DNA of 64,000 nucleotides, taken from NCBI GenBank assembly GCA_963701965.1, contig OY969695.1, positions 4,704,001-4,768,000 of the forward strand. Reading direction: 5' to 3'. Shown one piece after another: positions 27,295 through 34,605 of the stretch. Numbering within the stretch: the first letter of the stretch is position 1; each line of letters begins with the position of its first letter. Below the pieces are notes generated by a model. That model did no database searches and was not told the origin of the DNA. It saw only the letters and a list, made by a program, of their open reading frames with translations. The DNA is from an uncultured Gemmatimonadales bacterium. GTDB lineage: Bacteria; Gemmatimonadota; Gemmatimonadetes; Gemmatimonadales; Gemmatimonadaceae. Made by a program: the position numbers and the translations under genes.

Positions 27295-29826
27295 ATGATC
27301 GATTCGCGTTTGTCCTTGCTCGTGCTGGCGCTGGGCGCGTGCACGCCGGTGGCACCGGCCCCGGCGACCACACCGAGCCCCGTCCGTCTCGCCGGCGACA
27401 GTGCCAAGGGTGACTCCGCCGGCGCCGCCAAACCGTACTCGAAGGTCATCACGGCCAAGGCGGTGACCCAGCGCGGCCTCGTGATCAGCCATCGGATCGG
27501 GGAGAAATTGTACTTCGAGGTGCCGACCCGCGTCCTGGGCGCCGACCTCTTGCTGGTGGGAAGCCTGGCCCGCGCCAGCGCCGGGCAGGAGAGGCAATAC
27601 GGCGGCGACTGGCTCAACCGGCGGGTTATCCGCTGGGAGGAGCGGGACCGTCGCGTGCTCCTGCGCAGCGTGTCGTACGAGGTAGTCGCCGATACGTCGC
27701 TGCCGATCGCCCGGGCGGTCGCGCAATCGGAATACGGCGCGGTGCTCGCCTCCTTTCCCATTGAAACGTTCGGTCCGGACAGCGCCCCGGTCATCGACGT
27801 GACCCGACTCTATACGACCGGCATCCCGGAGATGGCGGCGTTCAAGGAGGGGCTCGATGAGAAGCGCTCGTTCATCGAGCGCGTGTCGGCGTTCCCCGAC
27901 AACGTGGAGGTCGAGGCGACGCAGACGGCCGACGGCAAGGACCACGGTCCGGCGTCGAGCGTGTTGGCGCACTGGAGCATGGTGCGCCTTCCGGTCGTCC
28001 CCATGACCGCGAGGCGCGCCGATCCCCGGGTCGGTTTCTTTCTGACCGAGCAGATCGACTACGGGACGACCGAGCCGCGTGCGGCGAAGCGCCAGTACAT
28101 CGGCCGCTGGCGCCTCACCAAGAAGGATCCCGCGGCGGCGGTATCGGAGCCGGTCGCGCCCATTGTCTACTACATCGATCCCACGACGCCGACCCAGTGG
28201 GTGCCCTGGATCAAGAAAGGCATCGAGGACTGGCAGCCGGTATTCGAGGCCGCGGGTTTCTCCCATGCCATCGTGGCGAAGGACGCGCCCGTAGGAGATC
28301 CGTCATGGTCGCCCGACAATGTCCGGCACACGGTGATCCGCTGGTTGCCGTCGACGACGGAAAACGCGTACGGCCCGCAGATCGTCGATCCGCGCACGGG
28401 CGAGGTGCTCAATGGCTCCGTCCGGGTCTATCACAACGTCCTCAATCTCGTCCGCGACTGGTACATCACGCAGGTCGGTGTGCTCGACCCCAGAGTCAAG
28501 ACGTTGCCACTGCCCGACTCGCTGATGGGCCGCTTGCTGGAATACGTGATTGCGCACGAGGTGGGGCACACGCTGGGGCTCCGGCACAACATGCAGGCCA
28601 GCAGCGAGTACCCGGCCGACAGCGTGCGCAGTCGGACGTGGATCCACCGGATGGGTTTCTGCGCCTCGGTCATGGACTACTGTCGATTCGACTATGTCGC
28701 CCAACCCGAGGACTCGATTCCGGTCGGCGATCTCATCCCCCGCATCGCGCCGTACGACTACTTCGCGATCCACTGGGGATATGCGCCGATCGACGTGGAG
28801 ACTTCCACCGCGCCGGGATCGGGCGGGGCGGGCGCCCGGCCGCTCATGCACGTGCGCGCGACTGATGCCGAACGACCCGTGCTCGACGCGTGGGCGCGGG
28901 CGCAGGACAGCGTGCCGTGGTTCCGCTATGAAGGGGACGAGGGTAACGCCGGCCCCGATCCGGGTGTCCAGAGCGAAGCCGTTGGTGATGCCGATGCGGT
29001 GAAATCCACGACCGCGGGCTTCGCCAATATCGCGCGCACCGTCCCGCGGCTCATGACGCTGGCGGTGCGGCCGGGTGAGCCGGACGACGATCTCAAGGAT
29101 CTGTTCGATCGCCTGATCGGGCAGTGGCAGCTCGAAGTCCGTCAGGTGGTCAAGGTCGTCGGCGGGGAATACGGCCGGGAGAAATCCGGCAGCCAAACCG
29201 GACCCCGGTTCACGCCGGTGCCCGCGGACCGGCAGCGCGCGGCCGTGCGCTTTCTGGTGACGCATGCCTTCGCCACGCCCACGTATTTCCTGGACCCGGC
29301 GCTCCTGGCGCGACTCGGCGCCGATGTGGGCGATAGCGCGCTGGCGCGCGTCAAGCAGGCGCAGAGCGGTGTCGTGCAGTCTCTGCTCCGTGCCGACCGT
29401 CTCGAACGGCTCGCCGACGAGCGGGCGATGGTCGGCCGCGGCGGTGATGCCTACGATCCGGCGGAGCTCATGTCGGACGTGCGCGTCGCGCTCTGGTCGG
29501 AACTCACCGGGGGAAGCGTCAAGATCGACGCGTTCCGCCGGAGTCTGCAGCGGGCGCACTTGGTGGCCCTCGATGCCTTGGTGAACCCGATCAACCCCAC
29601 GAGCGGGAAGCCGGACGACAAGTCGCCCGTTCCCACCGTCGATCGGACCGGCGCGCCGCGCGCCGGTGAAGGCGATGCACGGGCGCTGGCGCGCAGTGAG
29701 TTGGCGGCGATCCGCGACGCCGCGCGTCGCGCGCTGCCGCGCGCGGGCGATGCCGTCACCCGGGCACATCTCACCGAGACGATCGCCGAGGTCACGCGAT
29801 CGCTCGAGCCCGCGCCAGCGGCTTGA
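27295..29826 (+). CDS. Zinc-dependent metalloprotease lipoprotein (DUF5117/DUF4953-type)
   Basis: Lipobox LGAC, DPRVGFF, DPRTGEVL, HEVGHTLGLRHN, SVMDY Met-turn. Confidence 0.9.
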   Translation: MIDSRLSLLVLALGACTPVAPAPATTPSPVRLAGDSAKGDSAGAAKPYSKVITAKAVTQRGLVISHRIGEKLYFEVPTRVLGADLLLVGSLARASAGQERQYGGDWLNRRVIRWEERDRRVLLRSVSYEVVADTSLPIARAVAQSEYGAVLASFPIETFGPDSAPVIDVTRLYTTGIPEMAAFKEGLDEKRSFIERVSAFPDNVEVEATQTADGKDHGPASSVLAHWSMVRLPVVPMTARRADPRVGFFLTEQIDYGTTEPRAAKRQYIGRWRLTKKDPAAAVSEPVAPIVYYIDPTTPTQWVPWIKKGIEDWQPVFEAAGFSHAIVAKDAPVGDPSWSPDNVRHTVIRWLPSTTENAYGPQIVDPRTGEVLNGSVRVYHNVLNLVRDWYITQVGVLDPRVKTLPLPDSLMGRLLEYVIAHEVGHTLGLRHNMQASSEYPADSVRSRTWIHRMGFCASVMDYCRFDYVAQPEDSIPVGDLIPRIAPYDYFAIHWGYAPIDVETSTAPGSGGAGARPLMHVRATDAERPVLDAWARAQDSVPWFRYEGDEGNAGPDPGVQSEAVGDADAVKSTTAGFANIARTVPRLMTLAVRPGEPDDDLKDLFDRLIGQWQLEVRQVVKVVGGEYGREKSGSQTGPRFTPVPADRQRAAVRFLVTHAFATPTYFLDPALLARLGADVGDSALARVKQAQSGVVQSLLRADRLERLADERAMVGRGGDAYDPAELMSDVRVALWSELTGGSVKIDAFRRSLQRAHLVALDALVNPINPTSGKPDDKSPVPTVDRTGAPRAGEGDARALARSELAAIRDAARRALPRAGDAVTRAHLTETIAEVTRSLEPAPAA

Positions 29827-29851
29827 CATGCTCATCTCAGTGCTATAGGAT
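29823..29851 (+). promoter_or_regulatory. Sigma70-type promoter for the leader-susC-susD unit
   Basis: TTGACA (29823-29828), N17, TAGGAT (29846-29851). Confidence 0.7.
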
Positions 29852-29862
29852 TGCCGCTCACC

Positions 29863-33000: not shown

Positions 33001-33214
33001 CAGTGCGCCTGCGGCCGTCGCTCGAGCGATCAAGACGTCGTCCCTTCGCTTCTCGCTCGAGGCCCGGAATCCGTTCCTGTGGACGCACTATTGGAGCTAC
33101 GACCCGGAGTTCAACAACTTCGGCGATCAGAATCTCAACCGGTTCATCGATACGGCGCCGTTCCCGGCCGTCCGTTCGTTCACCTTCCAGATCGATCTGG
33201 GACTCTCGTCATGA
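30082..33214 (+). CDS. SusC/RagA-family TonB-dependent transporter (frameshift at about 31255)
   Basis: Signal peptide, [55 protein letters not shown]; the barrel continues in ORF 31271-33214 (IIGDANP, YDPE). Confidence 0.9.
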
Positions 33215-34605
33215 TCCGATATGCCCTGTTGTTGGCGCTGCTGCTCAGTGCGTGCGCGCCCGACCGGCTGGTCAATCCAAACAGCCCGACACCCGCCTCC
33301 GTCGGATCGAGCCCGCTGCAAGCGCTACAGCTGGGAGCCACCGGCGTGGTGGCGAGCCAGCGCAACTCGATGCCGGCCTATCTCATCGCGACGGGTCAGT
33401 TCGGTCGGGAGATGTTCGACGTCGTGCCGACGGAGAGCCGGTCGGTAACGGCGTACTACGAGAACTTCAGCGATCCGACGAGTGGGGCGTCGGGCGACTG
33501 GACCGACCGGTACGCGACGCTGCGCAACATTGCGGCGTTCGCGACGACTGTGGCGGCGGCGACAACGGTGCCCGCCGCCCAACGTTCGGCGGCGCTGGGA
33601 TTCGCCGAGACATTGCAAGGACTGGAGCTGTCGTACCTGGCCGCCACACGCAACAATCTCGGGATCGTGGTCCAGATTCTCCCTTCGGCGACCGCGCTCG
33701 CGCCGTTCGTCTCGCGCGACTCGGCGTGGACGTTCGTGTCCGCGGTCCTCGACTCCGGCTACGCCGCGCTGACGGCTGCCGGCAACGTCGCGTTTCCCTT
33801 TTCGCTACCCGAAGCGGCTGGGCAGGGCTGGAGCGGGTTCGACACGCCCGCGACATTCGCCACGTTCAACCGCGCGCTCAAAGCGCGGGTCGAAGCCTAT
33901 CGCGCGTCACTGGCCGGGAACAACACCGCGGGCTATCAACGCGTCCTTACCGCGCTGCACGGATCCTTCCTGACGCCGCTGGTCGCGGACGGGAGCAATT
34001 TGGGCCTGGGGCCGTCCTATCTGTTCGGCAACCAGGGCACCGACGTGGCCAACACCGTGAGCGCGACGTTCCAACCGATCTATGCCCACCCGTCGATCCG
34101 CGACGATGGGACGGTGAGCGCGACCGACAAGCGGTATCTGGCGAAAATTCTCGCCGGCCAAGCGCTCCAGACGCCATCCGGCGCCAACGTGACGACAGAT
34201 CTCAGGCTCCAGGTGTACGCGACGGCGACGAGCCCCATTCCGATCGTCACCAACGAAGAGTTGGTGCTGCTGCGCGCGGAAGCCGAGTGGTTCACCGGTG
34301 ACGCCAACGGCGCGCTCGCGGACATCAATGCGGTACGCACGGTGAGTGGCGGACTCTCATCCCGCGCCGCGTTCACGGGGACTCAAGATTTCGTGACGGA
34401 GCTGTTGGCCCAGCGGCGCTTGTCGCTCCTCTTCCAGGGTCATCGCTGGATCGACGTGCGCCGGTTCGGGCGCCTGGCCGCGCTCCCGCTCAGCGGGAGC
34501 ACGTTTGGCCTGACCTCGAACCAGGTCATTCCCCAGGCCGAGTGCCTCGCGCGGCAGGACGCGGGGAGCGCCTCACTCGCGTGCCCCGCGTTTACCGCGC
34601 AGTGA
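33211..34605 (+). CDS. SusD/RagB-family lipoprotein
   Basis: Lipobox LSAC, NEELVLLRAEA, QRRLSLLFQGHRWIDVRRFG; ATGA overlap with susC. Confidence 0.9.
   Translation: MIRYALLLALLLSACAPDRLVNPNSPTPASVGSSPLQALQLGATGVVASQRNSMPAYLIATGQFGREMFDVVPTESRSVTAYYENFSDPTSGASGDWTDRYATLRNIAAFATTVAAATTVPAAQRSAALGFAETLQGLELSYLAATRNNLGIVVQILPSATALAPFVSRDSAWTFVSAVLDSGYAALTAAGNVAFPFSLPEAAGQGWSGFDTPATFATFNRALKARVEAYRASLAGNNTAGYQRVLTALHGSFLTPLVADGSNLGLGPSYLFGNQGTDVANTVSATFQPIYAHPSIRDDGTVSATDKRYLAKILAGQALQTPSGANVTTDLRLQVYATATSPIPIVTNEELVLLRAEAEWFTGDANGALADINAVRTVSGGLSSRAAFTGTQDFVTELLAQRRLSLLFQGHRWIDVRRFGRLAALPLSGSTFGLTSNQVIPQAECLARQDAGSASLACPAFTAQ

Follow-up and report, generated by a model that had tools for sequence, protein, structure and literature searches.

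A putative cysteine-responsive leader-peptide attenuator ahead of a SusC/SusD pair in a Gemmatimonadota genome

Leader-peptide attenuation, the mechanism set out in the available sections of 10.1101/834739 and PMC4007540, is the closest described counterpart of an element that we analysed in a 64,000 nt stretch of DNA from an uncultured Gemmatimonadales bacterium (assembly GCA_963701965.1, contig OY969695.1, positions 4,704,001 to 4,768,000; referred to as the window). The element consists of a short, cysteine-rich open reading frame (ORF) and an intrinsic terminator, and lies ahead of genes for a SusC/SusD uptake pair (susCD). The classical attenuators of Escherichia coli (trpL, hisL, pheL, thrL) share with it a short ORF with regulatory codons, a competing antiterminator and an intrinsic terminator before the first gene; in the trp layout the stop codon stands between segments 1 and 2. 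The window locus differs from these systems, since here cysteine would be sensed, the leader is likely leaderless, the stop codon lies inside the antiterminator loop, and the target is an outer-membrane importer instead of a biosynthetic operon or a synthetase. Its testable features place the locus among the classical leader-peptide transcription attenuators.

According to the accessible part of Canestrari et al. (10.1101/834739), attenuation for cysteine by upstream ORFs (uORFs) was previously undescribed, and the mechanism found there is translational: in Ms5788A the Cys tract pairs with the Shine-Dalgarno (SD) sequence, translation is controlled by SD occlusion, and termination was excluded. 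As far as this source extends, the mycobacterial polycysteine leaders resemble the window leader by having Cys codons in a small ORF, which is leaderless there and likely so here, and their target is a sulfurtransferase gene (cysA2); a rhodanese gene is likewise under a Cys leader in our host genome. Their leaderless, consecutive-Cys character may have a counterpart here in a CC doublet and an ATG 11 nt past the −10 box, with a start site that is predicted. Unlike in Ms5788A, the leader ORF pairs with the SD of susC with a P of 0.004 at most, and the terminator is conserved. The first-pass annotation of this DNA, made from the sequence alone, had cited the mycobacteria as precedent for cysteine sensing; the mechanism tested there by experiment is SD occlusion, not termination. 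Actinobacterial cys leaders in the available portion of Seliverstov et al. (PMC1262725) have no terminators. For Deinococcus deserti, de Groot et al. (PMC4007540, in the part available) predicted attenuation by a cysS leader peptide, which is also leaderless and Cys-containing; it differs by its 10 amino acids with 2 Cys and its position ahead of the gene for cysteinyl-tRNA synthetase, and is a prediction only. Another Cys-motif uORF controls termination ahead of a TonB-dependent transporter gene: CruR (DUF2946) of Bordetella, which senses copper ahead of bfrG, comprises 145 amino acids with a CXXC motif followed at 45 residues by the arrest motif RAPP, and acts through Rho-dependent termination (Roy et al., PMC9426467, accessible sections). 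Neither this length nor the RAPP motif is found here, where an intrinsic terminator is present instead. The window locus is neither of the mycobacterial translational type nor of the CruR type.

We interpret leader ORF and terminator as a ribosome-controlled transcription attenuator, through which transcription of susCD would depend on a shortage of charged tRNA-Cys. From sequence and fold models we assign this interpretation a probability of roughly 80%, and the first-pass annotation, which had proposed an attenuator, is supported; induction by cysteine limitation is what we infer from it. The novelty lies in the joining of cysteine, an intrinsic terminator and a SusCD target, from which a clue to the substrate follows. 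Classical attenuation would thereby be extended to cysteine with an intrinsic terminator, while the compared papers, in their available parts, describe only translational control, leaders without terminator, or a prediction. In a literature search largely without subscription papers, in part of which text matches to SusC were mostly to 'susceptible', no SusCD pair was found to be under an amino-acid attenuator, in line with the first-pass annotation, which knew of none; nor was any literature found that joins Gemmatimonad, leader peptide and attenuation.

The element is real and conserved, and the parts first noticed in the sequence (promoter, ORF of 31 amino acids with four Cys, three of them encoded by TGT, and 12-bp terminator with T-tract) were all confirmed (Table 1). 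Between 29500 and 30300 the promoter is the sole promoter-like site (shuffle mean 0.1) and the terminator the sole terminator-like site (shuffle mean 0.3). It had been overlooked that the met-zincin gene further upstream ends within the −35 box, its stop codon being at 29824-29826. No SD precedes the leader ATG, and in view of its short distance from the −10 box the ORF is likely translated almost leaderless. Its Cys codons are, in order, TGT, TGT, TGT and TGC. At least four Cys in 30 codons are expected by chance with P = 6e-5 at the coding frequency and with P = 0.007 in an arbitrary frame. TGT makes up 21% of the Cys codons in coding DNA, so that three of four in the leader are indeed unusual (P = 0.033). 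The intrinsic terminator stands between leader ORF and first gene and has the tail TTTTGCGT, with a T tract that is short in this leader; the susC ATG at 30082 follows 40 nt past the T run and is preceded by an SD-like GGAG at 30067-30070. A contig from a soil metagenome has the sequence of 29800-29947 apart from 2 differences; the leader sequence therefore exists outside the present assembly. A second frame across the leader, also overlooked before, holds four Trp codons; it was rejected as a candidate, as the corresponding frame of five orthologous leaders has at most one Trp.

All three alternative helices of the first-pass annotation (1:2, 2:3 and 3:4) were recovered. Energies of −12.3 kcal/mol for the 1:2 core, −29.7 kcal/mol for an extended 1:2 pairing (29889-29938), −29.6 kcal/mol for the 2:3 duplex and −26.6 kcal/mol for 3:4 were calculated, and antiterminator (2:3) and terminator (3:4) are mutually exclusive. 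In a masking scan a ribosome footprint was placed codon by codon on an RNA that ended just past segment 3. With Cys8, Cys9 or Cys13 in the A site, segment 3 was sequestered at P 0.82-0.83; without ribosome its capture had a P of 0.20, and values of about 0.2 were also obtained from Ile17 onward and at Cys24. Such a contrast arose in 0/200 dinucleotide shuffles. Folding with the ribosome at Cys13 thus agrees with the earlier proposal that a stall at the Cys codons frees segment 2. Placement of regulatory codons to free segment 2 fits Cys8, Cys9 and Cys13, but not Cys24. The geometry, for which that of the trp, his and phe attenuators had been claimed, departs somewhat from the trp layout, the stop codon being placed inside the 2:3 loop and Cys24 on segment 2.

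In the proposed mechanism RNA polymerase would start near 29858, and a ribosome would load at the ATG close to the 5′ end. When cysteine is plentiful, the ribosome would cover segment 2, or 1:2 would refold behind it; segment 3 would be free and the 3:4 terminator would form. When cysteine is short, the ribosome would wait at Cys8, Cys9 or Cys13 and mask segment 1, leaving segment 2 free. Segment 4 would not yet have been transcribed when free segment 2 captures segment 3, and polymerase would read into susCD.

Table 1. Features of the leader and its flanking genes (positions within the window).
Feature	Position	Strand	Remarks
DUF5118-DUF5117-DUF4953 met-zincin gene	27295-29826	+	upstream of leader; stop codon within −35 box of leader promoter
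Predicted sigma-70-type promoter	29823-29851	+	TTGACA-17-TAGGAT; 10/12 matches
Leader ORF	29863-29958	+	31 codons, MTPSMSMCCRALCIRSIGSGNSGCASSGGLG and stop; Cys8, Cys9, Cys13, Cys24
Predicted regulatory codons	29884-29901	+	Cys8 and Cys9 (29884-29889), Cys13 (29899-29901); all TGT
Segment 1	29890-29910	+	core 29904-29910; in folds pairs with segment 2 if no ribosome covers segment 1
Segment 2	29914-29931	+	antiterminator 5′ strand (from folds); GGGAGTGG found also in G290 and L049
Cys24 codon	29932-29934	+	TGC, on segment 2; stall predicted to favour termination (P sequestered 0.2)
Segment 3	30004-30021	+	antiterminator 3′ strand; overlaps 5′ arm of terminator
Intrinsic terminator	30010-30041	+	12-bp stem 30010-30037; −26.6 kcal/mol; short T tract
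susC (SusC/RagA TonB-linked outer-membrane protein)	30082-33214	+	two frames, break near 31250-31270
susD (lipoprotein lid)	33211-34605	+	overlaps susC stop; PF07980 above cut-off

At the DNA level, 60 relatives gave only short chance matches to the leader, and conservation was therefore traced through the transporter. SusD searches revealed relatives of 58-71% identity that form a close group; about 30 close SusD proteins are known as protein sequences alone. The orthologous loci compared were those of genomes G290, G372, G010, G079 and G526, two metagenome contigs (of four metagenome loci obtained, two are within the clade), and the window. These formed one group (SH-aLRT 99) in a quick tree built from the N-terminal parts of 45 SusC sequences. 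A detector for a short ORF with CC or three Cys, followed by a terminator 10-90 nt on, fired on 7/8 susC genes of this clade and on 0/38 other susC genes; with slightly looser thresholds its background was 4/400 random genes of the own genome. The sole miss is G372, whose contig begins past the Cys codons yet keeps the terminator. Ahead of orthologous susC genes the ORF and its Cys codons, on whose conservation the first-pass annotation had made its reading depend, are thus retained. What recurs in the leaders are Cys codons (often MCC) and a pairing of GGGAG-like with CCCGC-like sequences, while the remaining peptide varies and the leader interior is poorly conserved (mean column identity 44%), with Cys codons and frame kept. 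The promoter-like sequence TTGACA-17-TATCAT precedes the leaders of G290 and L049. In G079 (L054:95-600) two Cys leader/terminator units stand in tandem ahead of susC, the second with a weak T tract. In the compared sequences a short ORF enriched for one amino acid is kept in orthologues, as in classical attenuators. The clade is rare: it was seen in 2/26 genomes of the genus of G290, 1/87 of the genus of G079 and 1/301 of the family of G526, and no close SusD was found among five genomes of the window's own genus.

In order to see what the leaders of this organism sense, we considered a scan of its own genome for short ORFs ahead of strong terminators (132 terminators, 115 ORFs). A His leader with terminator precedes hisG (L062, G000:C1 about 2565990-2566150), a Thr leader with terminator precedes the genes for homoserine dehydrogenase/threonine synthase (L063, about 3607200-3607335), and a Phe leader (MTRTMFFSRFFGF...) with terminator, of the classical pheL type, lies in the window at about 24748-24878 (+), with the gene for prephenate dehydratase following at about 24908. 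A second Cys leader, with promoter and terminator, was found before genes for a rhodanese sulfurtransferase and an aminotransferase (L061/L065, G000:C1 about 3577880-3578060); similar rhodanese-type Cys leaders occur in G022, G072 and G086, and weakly in G122. A third Cys leader with terminator (L128, G000:C1 about 1106870-1107000, −) precedes a gene of the sulfite/nitrite reductase family, the 5′ end of which looks frameshifted; the corresponding gene in G001 has a CCC leader, and homologues adjoin cysH in G068 and G122. With the His, Thr and Phe leaders and both other Cys leaders ahead of corresponding genes, leader codons and pathways agree in this organism; the two further Cys leaders both precede sulfur genes. 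On these sibling genes Cys leaders are patchy, with 5/30 rhodanese loci (one weak; 3/30 by a stricter detector) and 2/12 reductase loci, several of these reductase genes being inside operons. The host cysS has no such Cys leader.

A Cys codon ends 10-15 nt ahead of segment 2 in the window (12 nt, for Cys13), G290, L049, G526, G010 and the second G079 unit, and in the host's other leaders the regulatory codons are 11 (His), 12 (Phe) and 10-13 nt (Thr) from it; this leaves out 4/16 rows with mis-picked hairpins or partners (first G079 unit, own rhodanese, G022 and G072). Two further rhodanese leaders have a spacing of 17 nt. In seven susC leader units TGT accounts for 17/29 Cys codons versus 21% in coding DNA (P 1e-5). 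Because of this bias, sensing by decoding speed fits better than sensing by peptide chemistry.

Several results weigh against the attenuator. Only six distinct leaders are available, because L048 is near-identical to G290, and they come from related genes and are not independent. In equilibrium folds the full-length RNA forms the terminator at nearly every ribosome position; the switch must therefore be kinetic, and the model would rest on co-transcriptional timing. The 'off' codons used when the contrast of Cys8/9/13 was compared with dinucleotide shuffles were picked after the profile was seen. The 2:3 duplex alone is no stronger than in shuffles (6, 18, 7, 35 and 49 of 60 reach it for five leaders). 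In the masking scan the G526 leader switches little (0.9 to 0.5), the first G079 unit shows no switch with the ribosome on most of its Cys codons, and the leaders of G290 and L049 are antiterminated without ribosome, as are the His, Phe and Thr control leaders. Compensatory pairing was seen in single folds only, and a MAFFT alignment of the seven leaders was poor. In addition, susC has a frameshift near 31250-31270 that had been overlooked.

The attenuator could also work in the same way and sense Met together with Cys, or general translation stress. Met codons immediately precede the Cys codons or stand among them in the window (MSMCC), in G290 and L049 (MCCSMMC), in G526, in G010 and in several sulfurtransferase leaders, and a stall at any of codons 2 to 14 yields the identical antiterminated fold. 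We nevertheless consider this unlikely: neither the two G079 leaders nor the sulfite-reductase leader have Met beside the Cys cluster, Cys alone is common to all leaders, and the ATG ahead of CC may be an alternative start.

CruR, for which the available part of PMC9426467 describes a Cys-motif uORF ahead of a TonB-dependent transporter gene, and the CC..C motifs of the leaders raise the question of whether the nascent peptide senses a metal (copper) or thiol redox state, with SusCD importing a metal complex. The leaders, however, comprise 17-38 amino acids, show no fixed Cys spacing and no RAPP motif, and are followed by an intrinsic terminator; the Cys residues would not yet have left the exit tunnel at the switch point. 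The same type of leader also precedes genes of sulfur metabolism, and a bias between synonymous codons is unexpected for a peptide sensor, all of which makes such a sensor very unlikely.

There is hardly any probability left for the view that the hairpin merely terminates the met-zincin gene, or belongs to a small RNA, with the ORF arising by chance. The met-zincin gene runs in the same direction, with 184 nt and no terminator between its end and the hairpin, but leader and hairpin stay with susC while the upstream genes change between loci (that of G079 is divergent, on the opposite strand), and no promoter was found between terminator and susC; by this conservation the terminator version appears largely refuted. 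As to a small RNA, 29968-30041 gave a match to the Rfam family sRNA Xoo2 that is mostly terminator hairpin, and according to the accessible part of PMC3039613 Xoo2 is confined to X. oryzae; at 31.2 bits (cut-off 45) this identity was rejected. An undescribed riboswitch or protein-binding antiterminator, with the three-way junction at 29925-30010 as aptamer, is just as improbable: a multi-branch fold closed by CAGUGGC/GCCACUG does form in models, but the interior drifts while Cys codons and frame are kept, and, as the first-pass annotation required of its reading, no known riboswitch explains the helices, as no Rfam family matched at gathering score in the window region, four orthologous susC loci or two sibling Cys-leader loci.

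If a cysteine-sensing attenuator controls susCD, we infer that the pair may import a source of cysteine or reduced sulfur. More tentatively, with odds a little short of even, this rare SusCD clade would serve as an outer-membrane importer dedicated to nutrients that yield cysteine (cysteine peptides, glutathione-like thiols, other organosulfur compounds). It would form the uptake side of a Gemmatimonadota cysteine regulon whose control lies entirely in transcription termination governed by the ribosome, and would pass from genus to genus together with its attenuator, which in one genome has been duplicated to give a tandem switch. Among SusCD pairs it would then be the first with amino-acid attenuation, and the first tied to sulfur nutrition through its leader. 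SusC-like transporters are many in Gemmatimonadota (about 20 SusC-like matches in the host genome), and a Cys attenuator would name the inducing condition and narrow the substrate for one clade. The surroundings lend this assignment no support: there are no conserved neighbours, those present being amidohydrolases, an esterase and an M16 peptidase, mostly on the opposite strand, and nothing points to a substrate, as sequence matches in PDB and Atlas are those of a generic SusD. Solved relatives of the G290 SusC are generic too, with BT_2264 as the best (E 5.5e-48), followed by other SusC homologues and RagA.

No gene of PF01507 (cysH/cysD family) was found in the host genome, which has 5.1 Mb, a guanine-cytosine content of 67% and a completeness of 95%; cysteine synthases are present. 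This absence would favour the proposed reading, but it is usual in the family: since 14/81 family genomes and 1/5 other carriers have PF01507, a need for reduced or organic sulfur would be family-wide, not specific to carriers, and lack of cysH was rejected as a mark of leader carriers. The transporter may bear on the source of reduced sulfur in the 67/81 sampled family genomes without such a gene. As separate observations, a SAM_alpha (SAM-II) riboswitch (L095:1352-1427, −; 45.9 bits, threshold 36) is divergent from a cysteine synthase gene, and a twin-arginine-type protein encoded at window 34624-35352 (−), convergent with susD, is weakly like the thiosulfate dehydrogenase TetH (32.7 bits, cut-off 300); this TetH-like neighbour was not seen beside the orthologous loci examined.

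A gene for a SusC/RagA-family TonB-dependent transporter followed by one for a SusD lipoprotein makes the locus a SusC/SusD pair. Both pieces of susC match TIGR04056, a match to TIGR04057 is above cut-off, and PF07715 matches too, while homologues of the susD product carry the names RagB/SusD and belong, where named, to Gemmatimonadaceae or Gemmatimonadota. These families and PF07980 are shared with the known SusC/SusD (RagA/RagB) pairs, from which the locus differs by being stand-alone, with no conserved degradative neighbours. The intact susC orthologue of G079 clears the TIGR04056 cut-off (475 versus 368 bits). In the same assembly rpoB is likewise split between frames (G000:C1 1454098-1458625), while rpoC is whole. 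Since rpoB is also split and susC is unbroken in the orthologous loci, the susC break is probably an assembly error; no public contig that spans it was found. Several kinase-like genes of the window (23814-24335, 35779-36408 and 37669-40306) also look broken or frameshifted, and with the split rpoB they make indel errors in the assembly likely. Elsewhere in the window, at 18293-18379 (−), ARAGORN predicts a tRNA-Arg of 87 nt whose anticodon, GCG, is unusual; this may be a miscall.

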